Under the pieces are notes generated by a model. That model saw only the letters and a program-made list of their open reading frames with translations, was not told where the DNA came from and made no database searches. Shown here in pieces: positions 7,314-45,443 of a stretch of DNA of 64,000 nucleotides. How positions within the stretch are numbered: the stretch's first letter is position 1; every line of letters starts with the position of its first letter. The translations under genes and the position numbers were made by a program. Source of the DNA: Candidatus Poribacteria bacterium (GTDB lineage Bacteria; Poribacteria; WGA-4E; WGA-3G). The stretch is from contig CBDBFU010000027.1 of assembly GCA_965205025.1 (NCBI GenBank), forward strand, positions 70,294-134,293, in the 5' to 3' direction.

Positions 7314-10300
7314 ATGAATTCATTAAAAAATATTATTGAACGATGCCACCGACGGAGAGAAAAACCACTCCAACAGCGAAAAACAACTGTCGTCGCTGCA
7401 CCATATAAGGGAGGCCATCCATACGAACATACTGTCTATTACGCACACGGATACTCTGAAACACTCTATGCATTAGAAAAAGTGAATATCTCCTTTATGC
7501 CAATAGGACGCGCCCCAGGAAATGACCGCGGTCCAAGATCTTATGATGCACCTCATAGGTACGAAGAACGACAAGGATGGGAAAATTGGGCACTACGACG
7601 ATGGATAGATTCCTGGGGAATTCAAATATATACCGGGACACCCTCTCAACAACATGGCGCACAATGGCATGATGTCCTAATTAAATATGAAGCACTCTGT
7701 GAGGCACCAAAACTTGTTATAGATTGTATCACCGCACTCGCAGAAAGTGTCGTCAACCCACTTATAACATTGACAAAATCAGGAGACCTACGCTTTTCTT
7801 ATCGAATCACAAATTACCTACATCCACAATTCAAAGAAGACCAATCTTATATCTATAAAGAAACACAAAACCAACAAACTGTATACCTGCAAATCTTAGG
7901 TGAAAAAGGAGTTAGTTGTTGGGACGCACGCTACGAGATAATCATGGGGGACCTCTTAGATCCGCCTATCATTTCAAAAAATTCGCTCTTTGAACCTATT
8001 GATACCCTACGGAAGATTCTCCACCAACCTAAATCTTCCACTATAGTCGAAATCACTAATCAAAAAGAAAAAATCTATATTACTACACCACCCATATCCC
8101 TCGGATCACATAGACTTGACCTCGCAAAAGAAGCTTTTATAAGACGCGGTTTTACCTACCTACAAGAATACAACGGGTTTCACCAAATGACACCCATTCA
8201 CAATAAAGATCCAAATAGGCATGTCTCTTTATGGGAACGCGACAGAATCGTATGGGTTCGCGCATCTACAATTGACTTCGGTATACCCATTGAAACTACA
8301 CCAATCACAGACATCTGGGATGATACAGGCATTATTACAATACGATCTTCAAAAGCACAACACCATACCGGGATTTATCACAATGTTCGGACAACAAACC
8401 TTAGTCCTTTGACAATTAAGCGACCTGCCACCATACTAAAAAAACAGACAAATCCCACAGAAAAACAGAAACACTTTAATCAGCAGGATTGTCAAGACTT
8501 ATTAAACGGGGACACACGCATACTTGTCATACAGGCTGATACATTTCATCAACTTAATAACCTAATACAATCTATATTGTCTAATGGGACACCGATATGT
8601 CTAAATGTAGAACCGGATCATCTCGTAGAAAAGGTTGAGGAACACTTTAAAGATAAAAAAATAAACTTTACACGACTTAAACCCCGGATGCACCTATGGG
8701 AAAAGGTCAAGAATATTCACATTAACCAACGCATGCAAAATCCATTTAAACATGGGAACGTCTGTGAAGATGCTGAACGGTGCGATACCCTTGAGAGAAA
8801 AGGCGGAGATCCAAACATACATATCTGTCCACACTGTCCCGTCTACACCACATGCCAAGAAAAAGGGTATTTGTCTCAACCCCTTCAATTACAGCAAGCA
8901 CAAACACAACTATTAACAGATACTCAACTGTTTTTCAATTCTGATTCAATAAACTCAGATAGTCAACTCATGAAAAATGTTGACAATACCGACAGACTTT
9001 ATATCCTTCATCAACCGAATGTGACGAGTCAAACTACTATATGTGAACTCTTTATAGAGAGATTGCAGGAGTGGATCGTCAATTGGCGGGGAGAGGCACT
9101 CGGAAACTTCGCCAATTTCTTGATGAACGCTTTTGAACCCGATAAAATGTACTATAGCGATACCATTAAGCGAATACGATCAACGGTTCAAGCATTTGAA
9201 TGGCAGGAAGAAGAAATTGTCAGACAAATGCAACAGGTAAATGTTACATGTCAAGTTACAGAACCGGGGTATGTTGATCCTGACACGGGACAAGAATTAG
9301 CAAAATTCACGATAAAATTCAAAGGAGGGGCATCGGCGTATTTACCCTTAAACAGCGAGGCAAAAGAACTTTTGATAGCACGCAAAATTCCTGTCTTTAT
9401 CCTTAAATCCTTTGAACTTAATACTAACATGAAAATTCCGATGTCAATGTCAAAGGCTATTGAGTTAGGGATATTGAAAACAGATACTGTTGACCATATA
9501 GAAGATTTTCCCACTGTCTGTAAAAACTCAAACCAGACAATTTGGCATCAACTCAAACAGTTCTTCAACCATTACGCTCGTAATGAAGATGTACGCGTTC
9601 GATGGTATGAAGAAATGCTGTTATTCAGGTGGGCAAACACAATACATCCATCAATAAAACGACTTATTATCACAACCACTACCCTTAATCAAACACAGAT
9701 TCAAAGATTATTTCCTGATGAGACAATTGAAGTCCGAACCCTAAAACCTAAAAAGTGGAAGAAAGGAAACAGAGTTTTTCAGATACGCACGGGTTTGTAT
9801 CCAAGAGAAAGGATCTTAGACTATCGTGGGAACTGGGATGTCCTGGGGTTAACCAACATTGGGGGACGAATATTCTCACGAATCTTAGCAGAAATTGAAA
9901 AGGATCAGAACATTTTCCATACGATTATCACCTATGGGGGTGCTCTAAAACAAATAAAGGAATTGGTTAAGACAGAGAATGTCACTTTTTTTAAGAATAC
10001 TGACAAAAACTTCATATATCACCTTCTTGTCGAACAAAATTTTCAGCAAGCTATAGAAAAATCACAAGTCGTTTGGATCGTCGGGAGTCCAGAACCTTCA
10101 AAAGGAAATGTTTGGCGCCAAGTTCAAACACTCTACGGAAATGACAAGACCCCACTACACTATGAAAAAGATGCCGGTTCCGGACTCTATAAAGATGAAA
10201 GATTACAACATGTCTATCAACAGATGATCGTCAATTCTATTAAATTTATCATTGATTCTATAAAGTTAGATCAAATAGCAAATAAAACCATTGTCATCGT

Positions 10301-10736
10301 CAGCGGCGTAAACATTCCAAACATCACGAATAGACCAGAAACCGTACTTTTTGATTGGGAAGATTTTGAGGTAGCAAGTGAACTAAACACCCTTCCTGAA
10401 ACGATTGCTATACGCGAACGTTTTGAGGTAGAACGCGAAAAATTAAATGCCAATTCCAGCAGAGAAACTGTAGAACGGGTTTTAGGGTGTTCACGAAGAC
10501 AAGCAAACCGTAAATTACAAAAGTTTAGAGGCGGCACACCTTTGCGAGTTTCATTCCGTGATCAAATCTTGGAAATGCTTACTGATGGAGATAAGAAAAC
10601 CGCTGAATTGGTACAAGCCATTGACGGCAATCCAGAAGCCATTAAAAACGAACTCAAACGCCTCGTCGATAAAGGTGAAATCATCAGAGTCGAAAGAGGC
10701 ATCTATTCCGCACCTGCAACCTCAAACACCAAATAA
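7314..10736 (+). CDS. 1140-aa uncharacterised protein: degenerate Prim-Pol-like N-terminus, Cys cluster, C-terminal HTH + winged HTH; paralog of 42066..45443
   Basis: SWGIQIYTG, LTKSGDLRF, C-x5-C...CPHCPVYTTC, VERVLGCSRRQANR, LVDKGEIIRVERGIY; colinear with the paralog. The domain calls are inference. Confidence 0.6.
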   Translation: MNSLKNIIERCHRRREKPLQQRKTTVVAAPYKGGHPYEHTVYYAHGYSETLYALEKVNISFMPIGRAPGNDRGPRSYDAPHRYEERQGWENWALRRWIDSWGIQIYTGTPSQQHGAQWHDVLIKYEALCEAPKLVIDCITALAESVVNPLITLTKSGDLRFSYRITNYLHPQFKEDQSYIYKETQNQQTVYLQILGEKGVSCWDARYEIIMGDLLDPPIISKNSLFEPIDTLRKILHQPKSSTIVEITNQKEKIYITTPPISLGSHRLDLAKEAFIRRGFTYLQEYNGFHQMTPIHNKDPNRHVSLWERDRIVWVRASTIDFGIPIETTPITDIWDDTGIITIRSSKAQHHTGIYHNVRTTNLSPLTIKRPATILKKQTNPTEKQKHFNQQDCQDLLNGDTRILVIQADTFHQLNNLIQSILSNGTPICLNVEPDHLVEKVEEHFKDKKINFTRLKPRMHLWEKVKNIHINQRMQNPFKHGNVCEDAERCDTLERKGGDPNIHICPHCPVYTTCQEKGYLSQPLQLQQAQTQLLTDTQLFFNSDSINSDSQLMKNVDNTDRLYILHQPNVTSQTTICELFIERLQEWIVNWRGEALGNFANFLMNAFEPDKMYYSDTIKRIRSTVQAFEWQEEEIVRQMQQVNVTCQVTEPGYVDPDTGQELAKFTIKFKGGASAYLPLNSEAKELLIARKIPVFILKSFELNTNMKIPMSMSKAIELGILKTDTVDHIEDFPTVCKNSNQTIWHQLKQFFNHYARNEDVRVRWYEEMLLFRWANTIHPSIKRLIITTTTLNQTQIQRLFPDETIEVRTLKPKKWKKGNRVFQIRTGLYPRERILDYRGNWDVLGLTNIGGRIFSRILAEIEKDQNIFHTIITYGGALKQIKELVKTENVTFFKNTDKNFIYHLLVEQNFQQAIEKSQVVWIVGSPEPSKGNVWRQVQTLYGNDKTPLHYEKDAGSGLYKDERLQHVYQQMIVNSIKFIIDSIKLDQIANKTIVIVSGVNIPNITNRPETVLFDWEDFEVASELNTLPETIAIRERFEVEREKLNANSSRETVERVLGCSRRQANRKLQKFRGGTPLRVSFRDQILEMLTDGDKKTAELVQAIDGNPEAIKNELKRLVDKGEIIRVERGIYSAPATSNTK

Positions 10737-10795
10737 TACCATTTCTGGTAATTAAAGTCTCATTAATAGAATCTCTTTAATGTACCACAAACTTT

Positions 10796-10896
10796 ATGAG
10801 GATTAAGTAAATATTTCGGTAATCCAGTCCATAAACTTATCGTAGGGGCGGGGTTAACCCGCCCGTATATTACCGATTTAATAAATTAATCTTCAT
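10796..10896. mobile_element. MITE with ATGARGATTAA/TTAATCTTCAT ends, inserted in a REP loop
   Basis: CACAAACTTT|ATGAGGATTAA...CGGTAAT...ATTACCG...TTAATCTTCAT|TTAGTTTGTG; contains a GTAG REP. Confidence 0.85.
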
Positions 10897-11183
10897 TTAG
10901 TTTGTGATCTTCCACCCCTCTCTTTGTACCACAAACTTTTAGTTTGTGATCTTCCACTCTTCTGTATGAGGGAATTCCAATTCCCGACCCTTCCATCCTT
11001 TATGTCAGAATCGCGGATTACGCGGATTACACAGATTTCACGGAACGGTTTTTGCTTGTGGTAAATGTTCATGTGAATGAAAAAGTGTTTGTGTTGCTTA
11101 AAAAACAACATCATTTTTACCAAAACAACTCTTCTCCGCGTAATCCGAGAATCAAAAAACCCTCTCTTTGTACCACAAACTTT

Positions 11184-11298
11184 ATGAAGATTAAGAAAAT
11201 ATTTCGGTAATTCTAATTTCCCAAACCCGGTAGGTGCGGTTTCCTAACCGCACTGGATCTTATCTTTAAAATTACCGAATTTAAAAATTAATCTTCAT
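11184..11298. mobile_element. MITE of the same ATGA...TCAT family with a different REP cargo
   Basis: CACAAACTTT|ATGAAGATTAA...TTAATCTTCAT|TTAGTTTGTG. Confidence 0.85.
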
Positions 11299-11477
11299 TT
11301 AGTTTGTGATCTTCCACTCTTCTGTATGAAGGAACTCCCATTCCCGACCCTTCCAATATATAACTTCAAATATACATATAAATCATATTAAAGATACAAT
11401 AATCCCCTTTTGTCATGTTCAAGCCTGGTAGTCATAACACAGATAGACAAACAGGTTATCCCTGTCTGTAAACAAAG

Positions 11478-11499
11478 CAAATATCAATATTGATATTTG
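11478..11499. promoter_or_regulatory. Perfect 22-bp palindrome upstream of the surface-protein gene; candidate operator
   Basis: CAAATATCAATATTGATATTTG is its own reverse complement. Confidence 0.4.
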
Positions 11500-11592
11500 A
11501 GTATTTAGAAAGATTTAGATATAAGGATTTAAATTCCCTGAATCTTAACATGACTTGAATAACTTTTTTTAAAAATAAAAGGAGTTTATGAA

Positions 11593-14500
11593 ATGAATAT
11601 GTCAAATCGATTGACATTTAGTATTTTAAGTATATTTTTACTGCTTGCATTCGTGGCAGTGCCGGTGATGGCACACGCGCCAGATGACGACACGGTAGGA
11701 CCGCACACCACACATCCAGTGGAGGTAGCAGTTCCTGAAGTTACAGGAGATAACCGTGTACCAGCGGTGCCTGTACACGGTCCACATCCGATGGTAACGA
11801 GTATTGCCCTAAAACCCGCTGCTGGTAAGGTTCGGGACAATATGGTAGTGGTTGGTGTCGCACCTGCTACGCCAACTGATGGCATTGATGCAAATGAGTT
11901 TGTCCTAATCGTTACTTTTGACCGTCCTGTCGTTGGTGCAACAGGTTCTACAGATCAGGATACGGATGGTGATGGTGATAAAGATGCTGTTGATGCTGCA
12001 GCGATTCTTACTGCTTCAACTGGTAATGATAATGAGGTATTGTATTCTGTCCGAGATAAAATGCGTGTTGCACTTGCCACGCAAACTGATATTACCTTTA
12101 AAGATGTCAAATTTATGGGGACTACCTATGACAAATTTGAAGTCACAGTAGAGGTTGGCACAAGTGCTGTCCCTACAGGCACGGCAACTGATGCGACCGA
12201 AAAGGTGATCCTCATAGTGCAAATTGGGGCTGGTGCTGTGTTTAGTGCACAAACATCAATACCGGATCCTCAGGGTGGTGTAACAGATGTAATCGTTCCT
12301 GGTGGAGCGAATTTGGCGTCAAATGCAAGAAATTCAGAGTTTATGTTGGTCAAAGCGTTGCCAACAGTTACAGTCGCTGATACAACAAAACCGACACTGA
12401 CGATTACACATGCCCCCGCTGATAACATGCCCCTTCCCGATAGTGGTAATGTGACATTTACCTTTACTTTTAATGAGGAGCCTGGTGAAAATGATGCCGC
12501 TTTCACACTCGGTGATGTTACTATTGACGGTGGTAGGGCTGTTGACTTTGGTGGTAGTGGCATGGTGTATACGGTGGAAGTAACGCCTGATGATCCAATG
12601 ATGTCTGTGACAGTAACCGTTGCTGCGACCGCAGTATCGGATGCCGCTGGCAATAACCTTGCTGAAGGTCAAACAGAAACATATATGGCTGATGATACTG
12701 TAGCTCCAACAGTCGAAATTACTGCTAAAAAGATCGCAGATGGTGATAATGCAGGTAAAATTCTTTTCACATTAACATTTAGTGAACCGCTTGGAGCGGG
12801 TGAATCTGCCTTGTCAAGGAATGACCTTGCACTCAGCACTGGTGCTTCGGTGGCAAGAATTCCTATGAAGGATGATAATGATGATAAAGTATGGACGGTA
12901 ATTGTCACCCCATCTGCCTCAGGTCCGACAACACTAACAATCGAAGGTGGTTCGGTTAAGGACGTGCAAGAGAATGCATTGTTAGCAGATAAGTCACATA
13001 CGTATGTAGCACCTGATGCACCTGTGGTTGCTGCCAAGGATCCGACAACGGCAACCATCCCAAGCATATTTGGGTTCAGCATTCCAGCGAATTCTTACGT
13101 TGTTCTTACGAGAAACGCACTAGCCACGCCACGGCAAGATGGTCTGAACTTCCGAGACGTGCCTGATAGTAAGGTAGTCGTTTGGGAGAACATGCCTGAT
13201 TTATGGGAGCGCCTATTTGATAGAGGTTATGAAGGTGGTGGCGCACTTGTTTTGAGATCCTCTTACGGCGATGCCGCTGCAGATAGACCCAAAGTTGGTA
13301 CCGTTGGTATTAGCGAGATTATGTGGGCTATTGATGTAGGAAAATATGGTGATTTTAGAGGAACCGATCGCACAGATCCCCGCAATAAAACGTGGTTAGA
13401 TTCACAGTGGGTTGAAGTTCACAATCTCAATGCGAAAGCCGTGAAGGTCTTGATATATGCGCAAACAGGACGCGATCTTGTTGGCACTGGCAACGTTGTT
13501 GGCAATACGAAGGCTGGCGATACAATCCACGGCAACCCCGGTGGTATGGTCGTTGATGTCATGACAAACTTCTTTAACGGTGCAGACCGTGGAAGCGGTG
13601 GTTGGGATGTACCCGGCGCGAACGGTAATAGCAAAGCAGGTGTTGATTTCATCTCAATGGCACGGCAGCCGAAGCGTGGTTCATTTAACTTGACCCGTAG
13701 ACACGAGAATAAGGCTGATAAACCGTTGGATGGCTTATATGCCAAAACAGGCGGAAGTGAGCAGAGTTTAGATGGCAGAGCTTCCGGTAGTTGGGCAGCG
13801 GGCAGTGTGATTTATGAAAGGGAAGATACGGATATACCTTCTGGTACTACAGCTGCTCTCCCGTTAACTTATGAATATTTAGGTACACCGGGACATCCGA
13901 ATACAAGGGCACCTGCAAGTCATATCACCCGAAATGCTCGGACAAGTGTGCCAAGCAATACTGTTATCATCAACGAGGTTGCGAACCGTAATGATGTACA
14001 TAAAGCTTACGAATGGATTGAGCTTCGCAATGTTTCTACTGCTGAAATAAACCTGCGGAATTATCTCATTTCAATTGTACAGGCTGTGGACAGTGATAAA
14101 GTCTTGTATCAATTCCCAGCAAACGATAATGCCAAGATTGCTGTAGGCGGAGTGTTCCTCTTAGTCGCCTCTGATCCGAGTGGCAATCCGAGCCATCCCT
14201 TAGCAGCAGGATACAACGTTGATAAAAATGACGAAGATCAAGTGCCAGGTTCGCGCAAAAACCCTGTGCGATATAAGGTCGCTGATGTTGGTGGTGTCCC
14301 CGGTTTTGGTAATGGTCGAAACACAGGTGAGAGTGTAACAACCTTACCAGACAGTGGTAAATTCGTCCTGATCCTACGTAGACCAGACAACCATGAAGGT
14401 CACAGGTCTGGTGCTGATGGTGGCAAAGGTGTTGCTGAACGCGGTAAAGATGACGTTGATAAGATCGTTGATATCGCTGGATGGCACGATAACTTGAAGA

Positions 14501-15948
14501 AAACCGGTTTTGACAATGCGGTGTCTTCAACGGATTTATGGCCACTTCGAAGTTTCCGTGCACCTAATTTTAATCTGAATTCGTTCCAACCAGAGACGGT
14601 TCACTTCCGCCAACGCGGTGCCCATGGTCTTGGAGGCGTCAACGATGGTGCCAGTGGTGTTGGTGCGCATGAAAATAAGAATGAAGGTGGCAAAGCCGCG
14701 TTCCGTGATGAAGGTTATTCCGGTATCGGTTACAAACGCCAAGCTTCCAAAACCAATTTCCACGGCGGAAGTCCTGGCTACCACGGTAACGTGAGCGGAC
14801 GAGTTGATGCTACTGCGAAAGTTGTTATCAGTGAAATTATGTTGTCTCAAGGCAACGGTCGTGTGAAACTGCCACAGTGGATTGAACTCTACAATCCTTC
14901 TAAGACGCATGCAGTCAACCTCACGGATAATGCTGGCTGGAGACTCGTTATCGAAAATCCAAATCGTGCACCTATCAGAACTATCCACTTCAAGAGTGGT
15001 AAGCATGATGTGAAAACGATCCTGCCGAATCAAACAGTGCTCATCGTTTCATCGGCGGCAAGGGATTATGGTAGTGATACCTTATCGAGAGGTACGGTAT
15101 TTCCAAATACTCGTGTCCTGAATGCATATACAGTCCTGAAGGGTGAAACTTTTGAGATGGCAAGCCGGACAGATGTGCTCCTTGATCCAAAGGCTTTCAA
15201 CGTCAGATTGTTGGATGGTAAAACACACGACAATAAGCCTGGTGGACGCTATATTGGTGACGTATCAGACGAAGTTGGTAACCTTGACGGTAACCCGCGA
15301 ACGAATGATGCGGCTGCATGGGAATTCCCAGACGGTGTGACTGAAGAGGGTGATCGCACTTCACTCATCCGTATCTTTGATGAAGGTATGGCTCGCAGTG
15401 GCACAGGCATGGTGAAACCGCTTGGTGGCACAGATGGTGTCGGTGTTGACGGAATGCCCGGTATTGATGCCAAGTATAGTTGGGTTCATGCCGCTGATAC
15501 AGAAGACTTTGAGAAGCTCTTTGTCCGTCATACGTGGTATGGTGCTGAAACTGATTACGGCACACCCGCAGACCGTACAGGTCAAGTCTTACCTGTTCAA
15601 TTATCACACTTCCGTCCGACGCTTGAAGATGGTAAAGTTACGATCCGTTGGACAACCGAATCCGAACTTAACAACGCTGGATTTAATATCCTTCGTAGTG
15701 AAACACGGTACGGTGAGTACAAGCAGGTAAATGCTGAACTGATTCAAGGTCACGGAACAACCGGTGAACGTCATACCTATAAATGGGTTGACGAATCCGC
15801 TAAACCGAATGTAGTTTACTACTATCAAATTGAAGACGTATCCTTCGCCGGCGAGCGTCAAACGCTTGCTCTAACCAAGTTGAAAGGACTTATCTCAGCC
15901 GTAGGTAAAGCCACAACAACGTGGGGCGATATTAAAGAGGTACAATAG
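11593..15948 (+). CDS. 1451-aa secreted protein: signal peptide, Ig-like repeats, ~3 lamin-tail domains, fn3-like domain, C-terminal WGxxK tail
   Basis: RBS AAGGAG; hydrophobic leader ending VMA; DTTKPTLTIT/DTVAPTVEIT Ig starts; ISEIM/INEVA...EWIEL motifs. Confidence 0.85.
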   Translation: MNMSNRLTFSILSIFLLLAFVAVPVMAHAPDDDTVGPHTTHPVEVAVPEVTGDNRVPAVPVHGPHPMVTSIALKPAAGKVRDNMVVVGVAPATPTDGIDANEFVLIVTFDRPVVGATGSTDQDTDGDGDKDAVDAAAILTASTGNDNEVLYSVRDKMRVALATQTDITFKDVKFMGTTYDKFEVTVEVGTSAVPTGTATDATEKVILIVQIGAGAVFSAQTSIPDPQGGVTDVIVPGGANLASNARNSEFMLVKALPTVTVADTTKPTLTITHAPADNMPLPDSGNVTFTFTFNEEPGENDAAFTLGDVTIDGGRAVDFGGSGMVYTVEVTPDDPMMSVTVTVAATAVSDAAGNNLAEGQTETYMADDTVAPTVEITAKKIADGDNAGKILFTLTFSEPLGAGESALSRNDLALSTGASVARIPMKDDNDDKVWTVIVTPSASGPTTLTIEGGSVKDVQENALLADKSHTYVAPDAPVVAAKDPTTATIPSIFGFSIPANSYVVLTRNALATPRQDGLNFRDVPDSKVVVWENMPDLWERLFDRGYEGGGALVLRSSYGDAAADRPKVGTVGISEIMWAIDVGKYGDFRGTDRTDPRNKTWLDSQWVEVHNLNAKAVKVLIYAQTGRDLVGTGNVVGNTKAGDTIHGNPGGMVVDVMTNFFNGADRGSGGWDVPGANGNSKAGVDFISMARQPKRGSFNLTRRHENKADKPLDGLYAKTGGSEQSLDGRASGSWAAGSVIYEREDTDIPSGTTAALPLTYEYLGTPGHPNTRAPASHITRNARTSVPSNTVIINEVANRNDVHKAYEWIELRNVSTAEINLRNYLISIVQAVDSDKVLYQFPANDNAKIAVGGVFLLVASDPSGNPSHPLAAGYNVDKNDEDQVPGSRKNPVRYKVADVGGVPGFGNGRNTGESVTTLPDSGKFVLILRRPDNHEGHRSGADGGKGVAERGKDDVDKIVDIAGWHDNLKKTGFDNAVSSTDLWPLRSFRAPNFNLNSFQPETVHFRQRGAHGLGGVNDGASGVGAHENKNEGGKAAFRDEGYSGIGYKRQASKTNFHGGSPGYHGNVSGRVDATAKVVISEIMLSQGNGRVKLPQWIELYNPSKTHAVNLTDNAGWRLVIENPNRAPIRTIHFKSGKHDVKTILPNQTVLIVSSAARDYGSDTLSRGTVFPNTRVLNAYTVLKGETFEMASRTDVLLDPKAFNVRLLDGKTHDNKPGGRYIGDVSDEVGNLDGNPRTNDAAAWEFPDGVTEEGDRTSLIRIFDEGMARSGTGMVKPLGGTDGVGVDGMPGIDAKYSWVHAADTEDFEKLFVRHTWYGAETDYGTPADRTGQVLPVQLSHFRPTLEDGKVTIRWTTESELNNAGFNILRSETRYGEYKQVNAELIQGHGTTGERHTYKWVDESAKPNVVYYYQIEDVSFAGERQTLALTKLKGLISAVGKATTTWGDIKEVQ

Positions 15949-16126
15949 GGTTAAATTTCAGGGATAATTTAACCGTTCTCCTCAACGCATGGACACTGCA
16001 GGGTCTCGATTGAGGAATCTATCTAAACAATATTCTACAATAAGAGCCGGCTGTGATCTCAAAAATGCAGCACTCTTATTGTAGAATACCTCACATACCC
16101 AATCCCAATGATCTTAAACAAGAAAC

Positions 16127-16164
16127 AGGGTCTCGTAGGCAACTACAAGACCCTATTTCTTTTT
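16127..16164 (+). terminator. Intrinsic terminator (duplicate of 1813..1850)
   Basis: Same hairpin and T tract. Confidence 0.7.
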
Positions 16165-16340
16165 CCCACCCCTTGATAGGTTTTCTTTTTCCCACCCTTT
16201 GGTAGGTTCGGTTTCCCGGGGAATGCCTAATGGCATTCATACCGTTGATTCCTTGATTCGAGGGGCGAAAGGTGTAATATATCTGAACAGCGGATTATAC
16301 CATTTTCAAATGTCTATAGCAAAGATGGTGCTCCATGTTC

Positions 16341-16628: not shown

Positions 16629-16690
16629 CACATTTCTCGTTGATTTGGTAAGGACAAAATGATAAAATACAAACCGTGAGGAGTAATACC

Positions 16691-17164
16691 ATGGCAAACA
16701 CATATACACAATTATATATACATATTGTTTTTGCAGTTGAACATCGTCAAAACCTAATTCCGAAGGAACATAAAGAAGAACTTCACAAATTCATTACAGG
16801 TATAATCACCAATAATAAACATAAAATGATCCAAATCAATTCTATGCCAGACCATATACATATTTTTGTTGGTATAAACCCTTCAATGGCATTATCAGAA
16901 TTGGTAAAAGATATTAAAGCAAATTCATCACGATTCATAAACAAGAAGCAATGGGTTTCCGGTCAATTCAAATGGCAAGATGGTTATTCAGCCTTTACTT
17001 ATGCACATTCACAATTAGAGAGTGTATCAAATTATATCCTTAATCAAGAAAAGCATCATAAGCAGAAGTCGTTTAGAGAAGAATATATTGAGTTGTTAAA
17101 ACGATTTAATGTTGATTATGATGAAAGATATATTTTTCATCCAGTGTTAGAGAGCGATTCTTAG
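16691..17164 (+). CDS. tnpA: IS200/IS605-family Y1 transposase, REP-associated (duplicate)
   Basis: Identical to 2326..2799. Confidence 0.9.
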   Translation: MANTYTQLYIHIVFAVEHRQNLIPKEHKEELHKFITGIITNNKHKMIQINSMPDHIHIFVGINPSMALSELVKDIKANSSRFINKKQWVSGQFKWQDGYSAFTYAHSQLESVSNYILNQEKHHKQKSFREEYIELLKRFNVDYDERYIFHPVLESDS

Positions 17165-17282
17165 AAGATCATACGTGTCTTGAGAACTCCACCTATATGT
17201 TGATATAGACATTCCGTCCCTACGGGACTCAATTATGTGGGTATACACGTTTTCTATAGACATTCCGTCCCTACGGGACTCA

Positions 17283-17758
17283 ACACCCTTAATGAAACCA
17301 CCTGAAGACTTGAACACGGAAGCATGGCTTCAAAATGTGTTGAAACGACAGAATCCGCACCCGTTGACACACAAACGCGTGGCACACTACTGTTTGCCTT
17401 ATCAACATTAGGTAGTTTAACCTATGACGCAAATCTTTTTCAAAAACTCATATCGGAGGAAATGATGCAAGAATCTCCTTTTATAGAACTCATAATGCAG
17501 CGTAGCAGAGAACAAGGTATAGAACAAGGCAGAGAACAAGGTAGAGAACAAGGCAGAGAACAAGGTTCACTTGAAATGTCTGTTAAACATATACTGTCAA
17601 TCCTTACTGAGCGTTTTCCGTTGAGTGATACGGAACCTGTAGCAGAAGTCCTTGAACCTATTCAAGACCTTGATCGCTTAACAAAACTGCTTCGCATAGC
17701 GGTTCGAACATCCAGCGTTGAAACATTTCTACAAGAAGTAGAAACATCCGAAGAATAA
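17283..17758 (+). pseudogene. 5'-truncated Rpn with an intact C-terminal cassette (17462..17758, expanded EQG repeats)
   Basis: Fused to a REP at ACACCCTTAATG; internal GGAGG-AA-ATGATG start. Confidence 0.85.
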
Positions 17759-17762
17759 GGAA

Positions 17763-18011
17763 ATGATGCAAGAATCTCCTTTTATAGAACTCATAATGCA
17801 GCGCTATATAGAACAAGGTTCACGTGAAATGTCTGTTAAAAATATACTGTCTATCCTTACTGAACGTTTTCCATTAGAGGATGTGCAACCTGTTTTAGAA
17901 GCACTTGAACCTATTCAAGACCTTGATCGTTTATCAAAACTGCTTCGCATAGCAGTTCGAACATCCAGCGTTGAAACATTTCTACAAGAAGTAGAAACAT
18001 CCGAAGAATAA
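17763..18011 (+). CDS. Stand-alone RpnS-like cassette, 82 aa
   Basis: MMQESPF start; TAAGGA Shine-Dalgarno. Confidence 0.75.
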   Translation: MMQESPFIELIMQRYIEQGSREMSVKNILSILTERFPLEDVQPVLEALEPIQDLDRLSKLLRIAVRTSSVETFLQEVETSEE

Positions 18012-18243
18012 AAACTCCAGATTCACCCTTGTTGATATTGCATTCATACCAGGGGCTAACCCTCTTCTCCGCGCAATCCGCGCAATCCGTGATTCAGACA
18101 ACCAAGAACGCTCTTCTCCGCGTAATCCGCGTAATCCGCGTAATCCGCGATTCAGACAACCAACAACAACATGCAGAGCACGCACTCCAGCGGAGTGCTA
18201 TATATCTCAAATCTCTTGATGTGGTGCAAGTTATTAATCCCAA

Positions 18244-18573: not shown

Positions 18574-18682
18574 AATTATATAAGGAAAATATAATAGTAA
18601 AAATGCTCTCAAAACTCATAATTATAGTTGAGTTAAGAGAGCATAATCATAATGAAGTTAGATATCTAATGATTCAGATCTG

Positions 18683-19269: not shown

Positions 19270-19299
19270 TTGACAACACACAACCCCAGAATATATAAT
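19270..19299 (+). promoter_or_regulatory. sigma70 promoter of rpn
   Basis: TTGACA-18 bp-TATAAT. Confidence 0.6.
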
Positions 19300-19335: not shown

Positions 19336-20229
19336 ATGGCACAATACGATGAAATCGTGAAGCACTTGATGGACAGGTTCGCCGATGACTTTGCCATGTT
19401 ATCCTTTGCTACATCCGATGTCGAAGTTTTAGAGACACTTGACACGGAGCAACAAACCGTAAAAGTCCATCGTAACGACATGACATTTAAGGTACGATGG
19501 CACAATGAAATAGTACTACTTCATATAGAAGTACAAACCCAAGACAGTCGAGATAAACCGATGCCGTTGCGTGTTCTCGCGTATGCTGCTGAACTTCTAC
19601 TACGGTACGAACTTCCTGTCTATTCAGTCGTACTCTATTTAAGTGCAAACGCCGGACAAACGGATCCAGGTGGCTATAGTTATGGGGATGACACGTTCGG
19701 TTTGCAACATAAATATCAGGTAATTCGATTGGCAGAATTAGAAGGTGAATCATTTTTAGATGCAGCATCGGTTGGACTGTTACCGTTCACACCCTTAATG
19801 AAACCACCTGAAGACTTGAACACGGAAGCATGGCTTCAAAAATGCATCGAAAAGACAGAATCCGCCCATGTTGACACACAAACGCGTGGCACACTACTGT
19901 TTGCCTTATCAACATTAGGTAGTTTAACCCATGACGCAAATCTTTTTCAAAAACTCATATCGGAGGAAATGATGCAAGAATCTCCTTTTATAGAACTCAT
20001 AATGCAGCGTAGCAGAGAACAAGGTATAGAACAAGGTTCACTTGAAATGTCTGTTAAACATATACTGTCAATCCTTACTGAGCGTTTTCCGTTGAGTGAT
20101 ACGGAACCTGTATCAGAAGTCCTTGAACCTATTCAAGACCTTGATCGCTTAACAAAACTGCTTCGCATAGCGGTTCGAACATCCAGCGTTGAAACATTTC
20201 TACAAGAAGTAGAAACATCCGAAGAATAA
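19336..20229 (+). CDS. Rpn family (YhgA-like) PD-(D/E)xK nuclease, full length
   Basis: YDEIVK, RND, LLHIEVQ, MPLRVLAY, VVLYL, LLPFTPLM, MQESPF...EQG repeats. Confidence 0.85.
   Translation: MAQYDEIVKHLMDRFADDFAMLSFATSDVEVLETLDTEQQTVKVHRNDMTFKVRWHNEIVLLHIEVQTQDSRDKPMPLRVLAYAAELLLRYELPVYSVVLYLSANAGQTDPGGYSYGDDTFGLQHKYQVIRLAELEGESFLDAASVGLLPFTPLMKPPEDLNTEAWLQKCIEKTESAHVDTQTRGTLLFALSTLGSLTHDANLFQKLISEEMMQESPFIELIMQRSREQGIEQGSLEMSVKHILSILTERFPLSDTEPVSEVLEPIQDLDRLTKLLRIAVRTSSVETFLQEVETSEE
19969..20229 (+). CDS. Predicted internally initiated RpnS within rpn
   Basis: In-frame GGAGG (19962-19966) before ATGATG; the same point is the start of all stand-alone cassettes. Confidence 0.65.
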   Translation: MMQESPFIELIMQRSREQGIEQGSLEMSVKHILSILTERFPLSDTEPVSEVLEPIQDLDRLTKLLRIAVRTSSVETFLQEVETSEE

Positions 20230-20234
20230 AGGAA

Positions 20235-20483
20235 ATGATGCAAGAATCTCCTTTTATAGAACTCATAATGCAGCGCTATATAGAACAAGGTTCACGTGAA
20301 AACTGTATCAAGAATATTCTATCTGTTCTCTCAAAACGTTTTCCGTTGAGTGATACGGAACCTGTAGTAAAAGTCCTTGAACCTATTCAAGACCTTGATC
20401 GCTTAACAAAACTGCATCGCATAGCGGTTCGAACATCCAGCGTTGAAACATTTCTACAAGAAGTAGAAACATCCGAAGAATAA
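20235..20483 (+). CDS. Stand-alone RpnS-like cassette, 82 aa
   Basis: MMQESPF start; TAAAGGA Shine-Dalgarno. Confidence 0.75.
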   Translation: MMQESPFIELIMQRYIEQGSRENCIKNILSVLSKRFPLSDTEPVVKVLEPIQDLDRLTKLHRIAVRTSSVETFLQEVETSEE

Positions 20484-20532
20484 AAACTCCAGATTCACCC
20501 TTGTTGATATAGCATTCATACCAGGGGCTTAC

Positions 20533-30930: not shown

Positions 30931-32385
30931 CATAGGCGTCAATTTAGCGGTTTTTTGTAGCATTTTCAAGATATTCCAATGTTGTTTTTCTATTAGCTCT
31001 TCTTTCAATGTAGCACCCGTTTTCGAATACTTGTTTTATCTCATCAAATGTCTCTCTAAGATGTCTCTTTGACTTGCGAAAGCTTATTGTGATTGTGCGT
31101 GTGTAGGACGTAATAAGCTCTACTGTTTTCGATAAACTATGCCGTAAACATCGCCATCCTATGACCAACATCACCCAATGCCGAATGATTGCAGCGATCA
31201 GTTTAGCATATATTTCACATAGAATACGATACGGTTTTTTACTTCGTGATGTGTCTACTTTTCCAAGGCTTTTAAAGCACTTAAATATCAACTCGATCTG
31301 CCATCGAATCCGCGCAATGACACATATCTGTTCAGCGGTGAGTTGATCCGTTCCAATATTTGTAATGTAGATATTCCAACCTGCGAGTTGGAGTCGTGCC
31401 TGTGATGCTTGTGTATGCTTTCGTTTAGCACGATAGTTGATATCTCGTCGTCGTTTTTCGGTTTCTTCTTCGGAGAGTCTCTGAGCTACTAATCTTACTT
31501 TCATCCGCTTTTTTGAACCTATGAAAATATCTGTTTCGATAATGTTTTCGGTCTGAAACTTGAGCCATTTATGTAAACAAAGAGGCTTTCCTGTATTGTC
31601 AAAAACCGAACACCTAACTTTATACCGTGAAATCCAAAAGACCCCTTCGTCCGTAAGTTCTTGAAGGGTTTGTAGCGAAAAATAACCGAGATCCGCAAGG
31701 CGTAAACTCCCTTGGGGGAGCCGGTCAATCTGTTTTTCTACAGTGCTATCAGCGGTGATGCCGTTGGTGAGTTGAAAGTGTTCGAATGTCCCTGTAGCAA
31801 CATCGAAGCGTAGATGGAGTTTCAGTTCGGATTTGTTCGGATAATCCTTTTTACTGGCACCTTCCCAAATATCGTGAAGCGTATCAGGGAGTGTTATCCA
31901 GGAACTATCTTGTATATAGATACCGTTGAACTGTTCAAGGAGTGGGAGAACTTGTGGATCCGCAGAAATCACTTCGGACGCAGCCGCGTCAAGGATTGCT
32001 TTGAGGGTTTGTGCAGCTTCAGCAGTAAATCGTTGTTCAATCGCTTGTCGTGAGATTGGAGTACCGAGAGAAGCAGCAGTATGTGTAAGTTGAGTATAGG
32101 TGGCATCAGGATTTTCTAACCAACTATAAATAAGTGTCTGAGCAAAATGACTCCCCGCAAGTTTTCGATTTCTTTTGCAAAATCCTGTTTCAAGGGCTGC
32201 TTCATCAGCAATGGTTGTTAGAATCTGTTGCATTTTTTCAGGAACCTGTGATAATGTATTCATTGGAAACACCTCTTGTATAAAGTAAAAGGTAATATTT
32301 TTATACATTATATAGGAGGTGTTTTCACTTAACAATAATTATTATTGAAAAATCAGACATCCTTTTTCTAAAATTGACGCCTATA
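30931..32385 (-). mobile_element. IS4-family insertion sequence (IS231-like ends)
   Basis: CATAGGCGTCAATTT ... AAATTGACGCCTAT(A) around the transposase; REP stems on both flanks. Confidence 0.85.
30944..32263 (-). CDS. IS4-family DDE transposase
   Basis: ETGFCKRNRK, IQDSS, LADLGYF, WNIYITN, RWQIELIFK; RBS GAGGTG before ATG 32263. Confidence 0.92.
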   Translation of the reverse strand: MNTLSQVPEKMQQILTTIADEAALETGFCKRNRKLAGSHFAQTLIYSWLENPDATYTQLTHTAASLGTPISRQAIEQRFTAEAAQTLKAILDAAASEVISADPQVLPLLEQFNGIYIQDSSWITLPDTLHDIWEGASKKDYPNKSELKLHLRFDVATGTFEHFQLTNGITADSTVEKQIDRLPQGSLRLADLGYFSLQTLQELTDEGVFWISRYKVRCSVFDNTGKPLCLHKWLKFQTENIIETDIFIGSKKRMKVRLVAQRLSEEETEKRRRDINYRAKRKHTQASQARLQLAGWNIYITNIGTDQLTAEQICVIARIRWQIELIFKCFKSLGKVDTSRSKKPYRILCEIYAKLIAAIIRHWVMLVIGWRCLRHSLSKTVELITSYTRTITISFRKSKRHLRETFDEIKQVFENGCYIERRANRKTTLEYLENATKNR

Positions 32386-42065: not shown

Positions 42066-45000
42066 ATGAATTCCTGGCAAGATATAATAGAACGTTGCCA
42101 CCGACGACACAAGAAAAGACTAAGACAACGCAAAACAGTTGTAACTCCTGCATTATATAAGCGAAATTTTTATCATTTTAAGGTTTACTGCTCTCGCCAA
42201 AACCACGTAATGCTTGATGAACTTGAACGTGCGAACATCTCATTCATGCCAATCGGGCACGCTCCGGAGAACGACAGCGGTCCGAAGGACTTAGGTGGTG
42301 ATCGTTTCTTGGAACGTCAACGTACACGAAGCTGGCGGGAGAGCAACTGGTTCACATCATGGGGAATTCAGATATACACCGGGATACCCTCAGAATTTGA
42401 TAGTGCGCGTTGGCACGACTTTGAATTCACATATCAGGCACTCTGTGCTGCTCCAGATGTAGTGATAACGTGTATTGAGGCACTCGCCAAGATAACTGCG
42501 AACCCATTATTGGTATTGACAAAATCGGCCGGACTCCGTTTTTCCTGTAGGGTCCCAGACTATCTCCATTCAGACAACCCAGCAGCGAAGTTATACATCT
42601 ACAAACATGCACCGACACCCGATAATCCACACCACCGAGATGTCTACCTTGAAATCCGTGGGAAAAATAGGTACAGTCGGTGGGATGCACGCTACGAGAT
42701 CCTCTGTGGGAATTTGTTAGCCCCACCTGTTATCGCCAAAGAGCTTCTTTTTGAACCTATAAATACGCTGCGGGATGTGCTTCACGCACCGGAACCATCG
42801 GGAGAAACACCCACTGAACCCATGCTCTCTATCCCAGACTCCCTCGGTTCAGACGACCTTGATCTCGCAAAAGAAGCGTTTCTAAAGCGCGGTTTTAACT
42901 ATCTCAAACAGGATATGGATTTTCACCACTGGGTTTTTCACGGGAACGAAGGTCAAACCGTATACGCCTGGTTATGGGAAGAACAAGGCATTATATCGGT
43001 TCGCTCTTCAACTCCTATCAACGGATTGATGATGAGAGGCGTGCCGATAACACGTATCTGGGACGACACCGGCATCGTGACACCTGCAATATCTGGTATG
43101 CCAATAACTGATGAAAAACTCGCTGTACGGGAAGGAAAACTAAGTCCCTTAGCTATAAAACGACCCAAACTTGTGTCTTCAGCCAAAGAACCCGGTAAAA
43201 AGGTTGATGCAGCAGAAAAGGAGAATACGGACTGGATACGACGTGTAGTCGATATGGACACACGTGTTATCGGAATCAATACGGATACAAATCCAGACAC
43301 AAATAACGAAGTAGAATCCTATCTCCGCAACGGTGGTGCACTATGCTTAAATATACCAAACCGCCGTTTAGCAGCAGCAGTAGAACGACGGTATGAATCA
43401 CTCAAACTCCCCTCTTATGCCCGTTGGAAAGCCCGGATGTATCAATGGGAGGAGGTGAAGGATATACCGATTAACGAGCGTATAGCAACCCCATTTGAAC
43501 GTGGGAACGTTTGTGAGGATGCTGATCGGTGCCGAATCTATGGACTAAAAGGGGGAGAGCCGTACGAAGGTATCTGCCCGAAGTGTCCCGTTTACACAGA
43601 ATGCCAACAGCGCGGGTATCTATCGCAAATCCGCTTATTACAAGATGCCAAGGTACAAATATCACCGACTCATCAACTGTTTCTCGACCCGCAACACGCA
43701 AAAGCATTGGAACAAATCCTTGACACCTCAGATGAAACAGAACGAATTTGTATGATTGATTACAGGAAAATAGATATAGGAGACCTATTTCTCAGATGTG
43801 AATTCTCAAAAAAGGTATTAGAGCAGTGGGCAGCAAACTGGCGAGGCATGGCATTAGGCAACTTTACGGATGCCCTACTGAAGGTGCTTGAACCTGAAGG
43901 TTACCCTAATGAAAACCCTACCGACCGTGTTCGAGAAACAGTCTACGCATTTCAAATGCATGAAGAAGAGATCGTCCGACAGATGTGCCAGATAAATGTC
44001 CGAGGGAAGGTCATAGAATACACGACTGTTGATCCAAAAACAGGAAGCGAATTAGCACGCCTACGCATAACGTTTGAAGGTGGTGCTTCTGCCGACATTC
44101 CTGTGGATGCTGATGCGGAAGATATACTCAGAGCAAACGAAATGCCATGTTTTTCATTCAAGCCGTTTGCCTTAAACGAGGATATCCAAATTCCAATGTC
44201 GATGGAGACAGCAGTTGCGTTAGAGGTTTTGGATACAGGCACTGTAGAGAAGATTCTGGAATTTCCAACTGTTTGTCGGCACCCGAACTGGACGTTATGG
44301 CATCAGCTAAAACGTTTCTTTACACATTACAAGCGAAGTATTGATGCCCCGATGTGGTGGGACGGCGAAAAACTGTCGTTCCGCGTTCCACCAGTGCTGC
44401 ATCCGAGCGTTAAACGCCTGCTGTTAATATCACCCTCCCTCTACGAAAACTATCTTCGAAGGATATTCCCAGATGACAAGGTTGAATTCATCTCCACAAA
44501 AGCGACACCGTGGGTTAAAGGCAACCGCGTCTTCCAACTACGCACTGACCACACAATCTTAAACGATGATAACAATTGGGACGTGCCAAGCCTGTCTAAA
44601 ACAGGAGAACGCCTCTTTACTGGAATCTGCGCAGAAATTGAACAAGACCCAAGTGTTCAACATACAATTGTCGTCAATACACCGATTTCCAAATTTTTGG
44701 TGGATATCGCCGAAAAGGAGAACGTCTGTTTCGTGAAAGATTTCAAAATGTTGCACGAAGAGGATACTGAATTTGAAGCAGCGCAGGTTGTGTGGATGGT
44801 CGGCACACCGTTCTGGCCACAAAGCACTGTTTGGCGACAGGCACAGATGTTATTTGGAAATGATGAAAAGCCACTTCTTTATGAGCAAACATCAGAGTCC
44901 GTTCACTATAAAGACGAACGCGTACAAGAGGTATACCAACAAAATATTGTCAGTTTACTCACACGCATTATAGGTCAGATAGGGATGAACCGTCTGCCCG

Positions 45001-45443
45001 ACAAGAAGATCGTGTTAATGACGAGTTTGGCACTGCCTAACATCACCGACAGACCGGAAACGCTACTTTTCGACTGGGAAGACTTTGAGGTCGCAGGTGG
45101 GTTGAATAAATTGCCTGAAGTTATCGCAACACGCGAACGTTTTGAAACAGAGGCTTCCAATTTAACTGCAAATTCCAGTAGAGAAAAAGTTGAACAGGTC
45201 TTAGGATGCTCAGCACGGCAAGCTAACCGGATGCTACAAAAACTAAGAGGCGGGAAACCGCTACGTGTTCCCTACCGAGAACAGATATTCTCTCTCCTTG
45301 CTAAAGGTGAAAAAAGGACTTCCGAACTTTTGGCAGCTATTGATGGACCTCCAAAATGCATAGACAATGAACTCAGAAACCTTATAGAAAAAGGTGAAAT
45401 TATGAGAGTGCAGCGAGGGGTCTATTCACTACCTAAGGCGTAA
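42066..45443 (+). CDS. 1125-aa paralog of 7314..10736 (Prim-Pol-like / Cys cluster / HTH)
   Basis: SWGIQIYTG, WHDFEF, LTKSAGLRF, LEIRG, CEDADRC...CPKCPVYTEC, LIEKGEIMRVQRGVY. Confidence 0.6.
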   Translation: MNSWQDIIERCHRRHKKRLRQRKTVVTPALYKRNFYHFKVYCSRQNHVMLDELERANISFMPIGHAPENDSGPKDLGGDRFLERQRTRSWRESNWFTSWGIQIYTGIPSEFDSARWHDFEFTYQALCAAPDVVITCIEALAKITANPLLVLTKSAGLRFSCRVPDYLHSDNPAAKLYIYKHAPTPDNPHHRDVYLEIRGKNRYSRWDARYEILCGNLLAPPVIAKELLFEPINTLRDVLHAPEPSGETPTEPMLSIPDSLGSDDLDLAKEAFLKRGFNYLKQDMDFHHWVFHGNEGQTVYAWLWEEQGIISVRSSTPINGLMMRGVPITRIWDDTGIVTPAISGMPITDEKLAVREGKLSPLAIKRPKLVSSAKEPGKKVDAAEKENTDWIRRVVDMDTRVIGINTDTNPDTNNEVESYLRNGGALCLNIPNRRLAAAVERRYESLKLPSYARWKARMYQWEEVKDIPINERIATPFERGNVCEDADRCRIYGLKGGEPYEGICPKCPVYTECQQRGYLSQIRLLQDAKVQISPTHQLFLDPQHAKALEQILDTSDETERICMIDYRKIDIGDLFLRCEFSKKVLEQWAANWRGMALGNFTDALLKVLEPEGYPNENPTDRVRETVYAFQMHEEEIVRQMCQINVRGKVIEYTTVDPKTGSELARLRITFEGGASADIPVDADAEDILRANEMPCFSFKPFALNEDIQIPMSMETAVALEVLDTGTVEKILEFPTVCRHPNWTLWHQLKRFFTHYKRSIDAPMWWDGEKLSFRVPPVLHPSVKRLLLISPSLYENYLRRIFPDDKVEFISTKATPWVKGNRVFQLRTDHTILNDDNNWDVPSLSKTGERLFTGICAEIEQDPSVQHTIVVNTPISKFLVDIAEKENVCFVKDFKMLHEEDTEFEAAQVVWMVGTPFWPQSTVWRQAQMLFGNDEKPLLYEQTSESVHYKDERVQEVYQQNIVSLLTRIIGQIGMNRLPDKKIVLMTSLALPNITDRPETLLFDWEDFEVAGGLNKLPEVIATRERFETEASNLTANSSREKVEQVLGCSARQANRMLQKLRGGKPLRVPYREQIFSLLAKGEKRTSELLAAIDGPPKCIDNELRNLIEKGEIMRVQRGVYSLPKA

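Follow-up and report, generated by a model that had tools for sequence, protein, structure and literature searches.

A Candidatus Poribacteria protein family with a predicted Prim-Pol domain, an XPD/DinG-like helicase body, and a C-terminal winged helix, in which most copies have lost the ATP site

A stretch of 64,000 nucleotides (nt) from a Candidatus Poribacteria genome (GenBank assembly GCA_965205025.1, contig CBDBFU010000027.1, positions 70,294 to 134,293 of the forward strand), here referred to as the window and numbered from its first nucleotide, encodes two large paralogous proteins, P0001 and P0002. We describe here that both are members of a multicopy family with a predicted archaeo-eukaryotic primase (AEP) domain of the Prim-Pol type, a putative iron-sulfur helicase body of superfamily 2 (SF2) resembling XPD and DinG, and a C-terminal helix-turn-helix (HTH) and winged HTH (wHTH). 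We are highly confident of this family identity and of the inactivation of the ATPase in P0001 and P0002. The best explanation overall, which we favor with moderate confidence, is that a primase-helicase was domesticated and is now an ATP-independent DNA-binding protein.

RESULTS

P0001 and P0002 are colinear paralogs

P0001 (1140 amino acids; positions 7314 to 10736, plus strand) and P0002 (1125 amino acids; positions 42066 to 45443, plus strand) are open reading frames (ORFs) whose translations share one architecture. BLASTP aligns them at 46% identity over their full length and bears out the colinearity described in an original prediction made from the DNA letters alone. The motifs quoted in that prediction were also found in the translations: both proteins contain SFMPI, WGIQIYTG, and LTKSxxLRF near the N terminus and GEIxRVxRGxY at the C terminus. 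The motif I region reads WHDFEF in P0002 and WHDVLI in P0001, and the motif III region reads LEIRG and LQILG, respectively. Scans of both proteins with Pfam, NCBIfam, PADLOC, and PHROGs models recognized the terminal wHTH only, within the last 20 to 35 residues, and a profile search of PDB chains returned wHTH matches along with nonsignificant rows for a DEAH helicase (E 0.025-0.1) and WhiB (E 0.6-1.1). P0002 was folded with AlphaFold2 as two parts (residues 1-380 and 381-1125), each with an alignment of the family.

The N-terminal model has a Prim-Pol fold

In the model of P0002 residues 1-380 (predicted local distance difference test [pLDDT] score, 85), residues ~25-248 (positions 42138 to 42809, plus strand) adopt the Prim-Pol fold that had been proposed from motif order. 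Foldseek ranks 1-9 are all Prim-Pols (pRN1 ORF904 and phage NrS-1), and VIA aligns 177 residues of model region 25-248 with 1ro2_A (pRN1 ORF904) at a Z score of 12.4 and a root mean square deviation of 3.5. The Z scores for 3m1m_A (pRN1 ORF904) and 6a9w_A (phage NrS-1) are 12.0 and 8.6; these three Prim-Pols are the only chains at Z>=8, and the next, unrelated chain has a Z score of 6.2. On the strength of the model, the N terminus of P0001 and P0002 is thus predicted to be an archaeo-eukaryotic Prim-Pol fold. Neither protein matches the Pfam Prim-Pol model (PF09250) at E<=1, and an hhalign comparison of the family with five PF09250 domains from the same phylum (E 0.046, probability 1%, 49 columns) is too weak for residue equivalences. 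The Prim-Pol fold is followed in the P0002 model by a small α/β domain at residues ~261-341 (positions 42846 to 43088, plus strand), whose best matches in VIA are KA1-type domains with Z scores of 5-6, a range that the tool calls common.

The putative acidic triad of P0002 is complete (D118, E120, and E196) and is accompanied by R158, with the motif at positions 118 and 120 sitting on a β-strand of the model. In P0001, the second acidic residue is lost, as had been predicted, and the triad positions read D, L, and Q, with L at position 120 (P0002 numbering) and Q at motif III. Conservation was assessed among 221 full-length core members of the family, a sample that is biased toward relatives of P0001 and P0002. 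D118 is found in 221/221 members, D or E at position 120 in 110/221, and E196 in 201/221, with D in 2 more. The sxH signature of motif II is not matched; the sequence reads SGGLR, with R158 in 221/221 members, and D207 and R209 occur together in 219/221.

According to Kazlauskas et al. (2018, PMC5862659), the motif II His is family specific, with Arg or Lys in its place in the DR0530-like family, and a further conserved Arg, termed motif IV, contributes to nucleotide binding. R209 may be the counterpart of this motif IV Arg. Arg at motif II reflects the lineage, not decay, and is a known AEP variant. R158 is invariant, and among the distant relatives, P0147, whose Walker A and B motifs are intact, reads SGGLRF in its aligned N terminus; both results argue against taking the Arg as evidence of a dead primase. 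The original prediction was therefore right that Arg replaces the catalytic His in both proteins but not in concluding from this that the primase is probably dead. An inactive primase site is argued for solely where acidic residues are missing, as they are in P0001. Of the two proteins, P0001 therefore looks primase dead, and P0002 does not, as it keeps the full acidic triad.

The middle of the protein is XPD/DinG-like, with a Cys cluster and without ATPase motifs

Residues ~381-1020 of P0002 (positions 43206 to 45125, plus strand) form an XPD/Rad3/DinG-like SF2 helicase body with a degenerate ATP site in the model of residues 381-1125 (pLDDT, 89; predicted TM score [pTM], 0.81). Foldseek matched this body to XPD 2vsf at E 1.1e-10 and gave 63 matches at E<=1e-3, with XPD, Rad3, DinG, CasDinG, and DdmD among the proteins matched; sequence identity to XPD-family chains is ~10%. 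In VIA, XPD 4a15_A was aligned at a Z score of 15.0 with 472 residues over model positions 1-639, and since XPD-type chains align over 450-500 residues versus ~290 for RecQ-type chains, the fold match takes in the insertions that define the XPD family. The middle is thus modeled as a pair of RecA-like domains carrying Fe-S and Arch-type insertions of the XPD/Rad3/DinG type. This bears out the helicase half of the predicted primase-helicase and narrows it from an SF2 helicase in general to an XPD/DinG-like one.

Both proteins contain the five conserved Cys residues that had been pointed out: C483, C504, C507, and C513 plus C489 in P0002 (positions 43512 to 43604, plus strand) and, by BLASTP alignment, C484, C490, C505, C508, and C514 in the numbering of P0001 (positions 8763 to 8855, plus strand). 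C483, C504, C507, and C513 are invariant in 78/78 aligned rows and are kept in 220/221 core members and 33/33 distant relatives; the fifth, C489, is less well kept, with Cys in 208/221 core members and 10/33 distant relatives. In the alignment, the cluster comes after the Walker A column and before that of Walker B, between helicase motifs Ia and II. XPD-family helicases hold a 4Fe-4S cluster at this location, and the alignment suggests the four invariant Cys residues as a putative 4Fe-4S site.

At the Walker A and B positions, P0002 reads TDTNPDTNN and MIDYR and P0001 reads ADTFHQLNN and ILHQ, and the motif VI Arg is degenerate in both. The statement that intact Walker motifs are missing thus holds for both proteins and, because both motifs are lost in both, P0001 and P0002 are predicted to be ATPase dead; by sequence, no ATP-dependent 5'-3' unwinding is expected of them.

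The C terminus contains an HTH and a winged HTH

The predicted HTH and wHTH are located at positions 10455 to 10733 in P0001 (plus strand; AbiEi_4, PADLOC AbiEi models, and alignment to the modeled P0002 region) and at positions 45174 to 45440 in P0002 (plus strand; AbiEi_4, PDB chains, and the model). AbiEi_4 matches P0001 at E 2.6e-4 (residues 1114-1132) and P0002 at E 1.3e-4, both below the Pfam cutoff, and the best of the PADLOC AbiEi models matches P0001 at E 1.9e-6. The C terminus of P0002 also matches PDB chains of the MarR/ArsR/ZitR type (E 4e-4), and its model shows the expected helices and β-hairpin, in support of the HTH and wHTH that had been predicted. Like the four Cys residues, this C-terminal region is invariant. 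An identity as AbiEi antitoxins was considered and rejected, as the match takes in just ~20-35 residues of the wHTH and stays below the cutoffs, and the neighboring genes (LTD, cadherin, and purA) include no adjacent AbiEii-type toxin gene.

The family is multicopy and is found in two genera

A word-indexed search with P0002 yielded 1324 proteins at E<=1e-3 out of 8000 candidates scored, and one with P0001 yielded 1103 proteins at E<=1e-100 out of 4327 candidates. Nearly all members have ~1130 amino acids, and the few with a name are annotated in Candidatus Poribacteria as "hypothetical" or "HTH domain-containing." A look-up of protein clusters returned no name more telling than "hypothetical protein [Candidatus Poribacteria bacterium]." Among 101 genomes sampled from the phylum, 57 were family positive, including 28/30 of genus g1 and 26/32 of genus g2; genus g9 gave two weak matches, and the 14 remaining genera gave none. 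The family is therefore a multicopy one: a genome has from 4 to about 13 copies, and two Poribacteria genera are the only ones in which it was found. Besides the two copies described here, the genome of the window has one on contig 7 and another, which is shorter, on contig 15, making four in all. Five complete g2 genomes have 8-13 gene-sized or partial copies each, as counted after matched pieces had been merged, and these include architecture variants of ~790, ~980, and ~1000 amino acids and tandem arrays of up to four genes. Two syntenic four-gene arrays, G054:C1:904720-919045 (L016/L017) and G078:C1:2558660-2571633 (L039/L040), each consist of two ~790-residue forms without the Fe-S region and two full-length forms with an intact Walker A motif; on their flanks are TnpB, a gene for a PLD-like nuclease, and FGE-sulfatase/BNR genes.

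The catalytic motifs are unevenly kept among the core members. Walker A is intact in 38/221, Walker B in 106/221, and both in 32/221, and the acidic primase triad is complete in 101/221. Combining the two sites, primase and ATPase are both intact in 27 of the 221, the triad only in 74, the ATPase only in 5, and neither in 115. Walker A is lost in all four copies of the window's own genome and is kept (as GAGK) in 5/24 copies of genomes G054 and G078, 4 of these 5 being in tandem pairs within the four-gene arrays.

An exhaustive phmmer search returned 431 representatives at E<=1e-3, some of which have 1000-1450 amino acids and are 27-35% identical over residues ~351-1072. Among the 30 of 150 listed relatives that were covered by a Pfam scan, four have BT4734-like_N, two of these also PriCT_2, three have weak DEAD/ResIII matches, one that shares the N-terminal domain has DUF3987, and 17 match no family. 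In the alignment, 33/33 distant relatives retain the four Cys residues along with GxGK at Walker A and D[ED] at Walker B. Leads from the ESM Atlas are clusters of ~1000 amino acids that combine Prim-Pol, RepB_primase, or BT4734-like_N with ResIII/DEAD in Planctomycetota and Pseudomonadota. A profile search of GTDB species genomes with a 5-sequence alignment found no relative, and hence no protein of the metagenomic P0198/P0249 type, and in IMG/VR, P0198 was matched by its PriCT_2 part alone (6 loci), P0147 had no match, and no relatives of the helicase part were seen. We conclude that the P0001/P0002 family descends from a one-polypeptide primase-helicase made up of an AEP Prim-Pol, an XPD/DinG-type Fe-S SF2 helicase, and an HTH/wHTH.

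The genes are under purifying selection at syntenic chromosomal sites

Compared with its 87%-identical ortholog in genome G026, P0002 has a ratio of nonsynonymous to synonymous substitution rates (dN/dS) of 0.166 overall (dS 0.42), with 0.107 for the Prim-Pol domain, 0.175 for the XPD-like body, and 0.091, the lowest of the protein, for the HTH. For P0001, dN/dS is 0.307 against the ortholog in G009 and 0.241 against that in G043; the value for the adjacent purA is 0.041, and dS in the ortholog comparisons is 0.4-0.6. By these rates, P0001 and P0002 are working genes, with purifying selection on all domains and looser constraint on P0001. P0001 directly follows rplM and purA in three species (window, G009, and G043), and synteny was also seen between G054 and G078 and between the P0002 locus and G026, while paralogs within one genome are ~50% identical. 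Among 106 ORFs flanking 18 family loci, there is no integrase, relaxase, partition, or phage gene, and transposase ORFs (TnpB or IS3) occur at 3/18 loci. Upstream regions of three copies have no conserved sequence in common. A triple identical copy in G100 was rejected as assembly redundancy, as contig ends overlap with 100% identity over at least 14 kb; these ends (C2:1-14517, C3:1-14862, and C3:4191220-4205867) mimic a three-copy repeat in genome-wide searches.

In seven orthologous copies of seven g1 genomes (L015 in G028:C11, around 3517, and L027-L032 in G029, G075, G065, G021, G031, and G014), the same codon is an in-frame TGA that replaces the conserved Trp454 (W in 192/221). Purifying selection acts on both halves of these copies, with dN/dS values of ~0.07-0.18 at a dS of up to ~1.9 between species, and the nine codons after the TGA are conserved. 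The TGA marks one of two things, a gene that is stably split or a site of read-through/recoding.

Surface-protein genes and repeats near the family loci

A gene for a 1451-residue protein with a lamin-tail domain (LTD) and Big_12 lies downstream of P0001 (positions 11593 to 15948, plus strand), and P0002 is divergent from two paralogous cadherin/LTD/dockerin/Por_Secre_tail genes (36106 to 41674, minus strand) and a WD40 gene (32426-35839, minus strand), all by Pfam and all as the original prediction had placed them. Its observation of recent duplication or conversion at both loci was also confirmed: window positions 1-2000, comprising the 3' part of an LTD gene and downstream DNA, equal 14315-16314 at 100% identity, and the two cadherin/LTD genes share segments that are 73-92% identical. 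The orthologs of P0001 in G009 and G043 have other genes downstream and no LTD gene; the pairing of P0001 with an LTD gene is a recent duplication. The pairing of P0002 is kept in the close relative G026, where an 86%-identical cadherin/LTD ortholog is divergent from the P0002 ortholog. The AT-rich spacer between the cadherin/LTD gene and P0002 (positions 41675 to 42065) is conserved at that locus, with 251/279 aligned intergenic columns identical (90%) at a dS of 0.42 for the flanking gene, and it contains 12 promoter-like sites versus 2.9 in shuffled sequences.

In the window's own genome, LTD genes are found within 6 kb of 3/4 copies. Across five other genomes, an LTD locus is present within 10 kb of 7/44 family loci (1.5 expected; ~5/5000 permutations reach 7) and within 20 kb of 10/44 (2.6 expected). 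Pairing with LTD genes, which had been claimed for each copy, therefore applies to both copies of the window but is not a rule of the family, given 7/44 loci and the recent origin of the P0001 pairing. On contig 15, a multi-LTD gene cluster of ~29 kb (G000:C15:423445-452039) is divergent from the shorter copy (455860-458730), a protein of ~950 amino acids without the Cys cluster.

The neighborhood was also surveyed more broadly, taking three ORFs on each side of 18 loci (106 ORFs) and, as a control, 18 random loci of the same genomes. Surface/repeat-domain ORFs made up 29/106 near the family and 4/108 at random (Fisher P 9e-7) or, on a liberal count of the control, 7/108 (Fisher P 4e-5), with all neighborhood P values overstated because orthologous loci in kin genomes are not independent and were counted separately. 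The domains include Laminin_G_3 (7), LRR (4), WD40 (3), and LTD (2 by Pfam and a third by coordinates), as well as BNR, FG-GAP, VWA, DUF5916, and C25/FlgD_ig, and there are 7 FGE-sulfatase genes near the family versus 0 in the random controls. Homologs thus show enrichment beside surface/repeat-protein genes, though for a minority of copies. Divergence from the upstream gene was seen at 13/17 family loci, compared with 30/135 genes in the random control loci.

It had been noted that no integrase or phage genes are nearby, which is true; the interval does hold two IS200-type Y1 transposases and one DDE transposase (30944-32335). The exact 2-kb duplication is followed by an indel of ~51 nt and then by near-identical IS200 copies, whose two transposase ORFs (2311-2799 and 16676-17164) are identical, and the rplM-purA-P0001 block is bracketed by two LTD genes, each with an IS200 copy. 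Dispersed or tandem repeats with units of ~254 nt and 70-94% identity (2918-3849, 17282-18056, and 19789-20528) lie downstream of each IS200 copy and recur near 20 kb. Upstream of P0001 (6946-7129), a 32-nt repeat with a GCCCC-AGC-GGGGC hairpin is present in four copies with a period of 50-52 nt. The 20-nt core of this repeat has 115 sites in the genome (59 forward and 56 reverse, versus 0 with the reversed control), most of which belong to mini-arrays of 2-5, and as a genome-wide element, it is not a specific operator. It resembles repetitive extragenic palindromes (REP) or bacterial interspersed mosaic elements (BIME) and is possibly tied to IS200-type Y1 transposases.

DISCUSSION

As their working mode, ATP-independent DNA binding is what we consider the somewhat better bet for P0001 and P0002. 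Both proteins would no longer translocate on DNA with ATP; the HTH/wHTH would provide sequence recognition, with the Fe-S helicase body serving as a static clamp or scaffold for DNA and its cluster having a structural role. The Prim-Pol site of P0002 (D118, E120, R158, E196, and R209) may bind a nucleotide or make short primers, and that of P0001 would be lost. A domesticated origin fits these genes since they are chromosomal, syntenic, and under purifying selection. Of the "domesticated regulator or diversifier" in the original prediction, domestication is thus backed by synteny and selection, the regulator part is inferred, and nothing supports the diversifier part.

It is conceivable that the family members are local transcription regulators of divergent or adjacent surface-protein genes, a role that we put forward tentatively and would not bet on. 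Three observations agree with it, namely, the divergent orientation, the conservation of the spacer, and the enrichment in the neighborhood. A more far-reaching and frankly speculative version, which we think improbable, is that this family of Fe-S pseudo-helicases/pseudo-primases was recruited as large, site-specific DNA-binding factors that control islands of genes for surface proteins and eukaryote-like repeat proteins (LTD, cadherin, laminin-G, LRR, and WD40), possibly with a redox- or iron-responsive cluster and, where the triad is intact, a nucleotide-sensing or priming function.

Several points weigh against the picture of an inactive, DNA-binding family with a regulatory role. The regulatory role is argued from gene context, ~1130 amino acids is very large for a regulator, and 37/44 loci in the five other genomes have no LTD gene within 10 kb. 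The list of surface/repeat categories was drawn up after the neighbors had been seen. The family is not uniformly inactive, since 32/221 members (~14%) keep both ATPase motifs, and inactive copies might serve the ATPase-active ones. The strong constraint on the Prim-Pol site and the triad in 101/221 argue that many members, P0002 included, still do chemistry. Finally, D118, R158, and E196 are assigned as probable AEP motifs I to III from motif order, modeled secondary structure, and the weak hhalign result and not from a residue-by-residue superposition.

In line with such chemistry, members of the P0002 type could be working primase-polymerases, with the inert XPD-like body and the HTH delivering the Prim-Pol to certain DNA sites or structures for repriming, repair synthesis, or local DNA synthesis instead of regulation. 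The intact triad of P0002 and 101/221 members, the near invariance of R158, D207, and R209, and a domain dN/dS that is among the lowest in P0002 speak for this, as does the report in PMC5862659 of a motif II Arg/Lys and a motif IV Arg in active or presumed-active AEP families. However, no Pfam Prim-Pol match exists at E<=1, and 120/221 members, including P0001, are without a complete triad yet remain under purifying selection, so that catalysis is not the function shared by the family; we regard this explanation as unlikely. Alternatively, the inactive copies could be noncatalytic partners, sensors, or decoys that act with intact paralogs or in an unrecognized defense/DNA-surveillance system, comparable to the use of inactive paralogs by other ATPase assemblies. 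Intact and degenerate copies do occur together in g2 genomes, as the 5/24 GAGK copies of G054 and G078 illustrate, along with tandem arrays and architecture variants; the defense-linked XPD-like helicases DdmD and CasDinG are among the structural matches, and some neighbors are PLD-like nuclease, SNF2+VWA, MazF, and TnpB genes. In the window's genome, however, 0/4 copies keep Walker A, and hence there is no active family partner; moreover, PADLOC models match the AbiEi-like wHTH alone, and no partner gene recurs across the 18 loci, which makes a partner or sensor role decidedly unlikely in our view.

The resemblance to pRN1 ORF904 and the typical occurrence of primase-helicase-wHTH fusions as replication proteins in plasmids and integrated elements (PMC5862659) raise the question of whether the family members belong to integrated mobile elements as their replication proteins, or are relics of these, within variable surface-gene islands. 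IS200 and DDE transposases are present in the window, and TnpB or IS3 is found at 3/18 loci. Nevertheless, Walker A and B are lost, the 106 neighboring ORFs include no integrase, relaxase, partition, or phage gene, and IMG/VR has no relatives of the helicase part. Paralogs are just ~50% identical, synteny of the loci extends across species, three copies show no conservation of their upstream regions, and the apparent G100 copies reflect overlapping contig ends, all of which renders a mobile element highly improbable. Slow decay of functionless pseudogenes would be consistent with the loss of catalytic motifs from most copies, the faster evolution of P0001 compared with P0002, and the in-frame stop in some copies. 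Against this stand full-length open frames across >1000 database members, dN/dS values of 0.17-0.31 at dS 0.4-0.6, and the retention of the four Cys residues in 220/221 and of R158 in 221/221 members, and we consider such decay extremely improbable.

Domestication as an ATP-independent DNA-binding protein remains the explanation that we prefer. Primase-helicase fusions are familiar from plasmids, viruses, and integrated elements, where they are replication proteins, and here the helicase partner is of the XPD/DinG Fe-S type. Genomes in two genera of an uncultured phylum carry from 4 to about 13 copies, most of them without an ATP site and often without the triad but still under purifying selection at fixed chromosomal sites, and the family is a clear natural example of a DNA replication enzyme becoming a pseudoenzyme family. 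At ~1130 amino acids each, the copies take up a visible share of coding capacity under database labels such as "hypothetical" or "HTH domain-containing." If it is true that they control islands of surface-protein genes, they would give a way to study how the cell-surface repertoire of these bacteria is managed.

The combination of an AEP, an XPD-like helicase, and an HTH is a new domain combination within the known primase-helicase fusions. Full-text literature searches, judged by their listings, found neither a fusion of an AEP with an XPD-like helicase nor an account of this Poribacteria family, although the supplements of PMC5862659 could list such architectures; that paper mentions C-terminal domains remotely similar to SF2 helicases in all3500-family proteins. 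Like the DR0530-like AEPs described in PMC5862659, the family has a positively charged residue (R158) in place of the motif II His, the resemblance being confined to that single position. The last ~30-60 residues of P0001 and P0002 match the wHTH of the AbiEi antitoxin and of MarR-type proteins; unlike AbiEi, the rest of the protein is unrelated, the match is below the Pfam cutoff and limited to the wHTH, and an adjacent AbiEii-type toxin gene is missing.

The closest structural match of the N terminus, pRN1 ORF904 (Z 12.4), likewise unites primase, helicase, and DNA-binding modules in one polypeptide. pRN1 ORF904 carries a helicase of superfamily 3, whereas that of P0001 and P0002 is XPD/DinG-like SF2 with a predicted Fe-S site and lost ATPase motifs; in addition, P0001 and P0002 are chromosomal, multicopy, and syntenic, without a plasmid or element context, and have no Pfam Prim-Pol match. 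With XPD, Rad3, and DinG (including CasDinG and DdmD), they share the fold of the whole body, comprising both RecA-like domains and the insertions, and the four Cys residues between motifs Ia and II. They differ from these helicases in the degenerate Walker A, Walker B, and motif VI Arg, in a sequence identity of ~10%, and in the fusion to an N-terminal AEP and a C-terminal HTH/wHTH. The metagenomic proteins P0198 and P0249 (BT4734-like_N, PriCT_2, SF2 helicase, and AbiEi_4) show true homology to residues ~440-1120 (phmmer E 1e-58 and 1e-40, respectively) and have the same four Cys residues and the same C-terminal wHTH, but their primase is a BT4734-like AEP followed by PriCT_2, and their Walker A and B motifs are intact.

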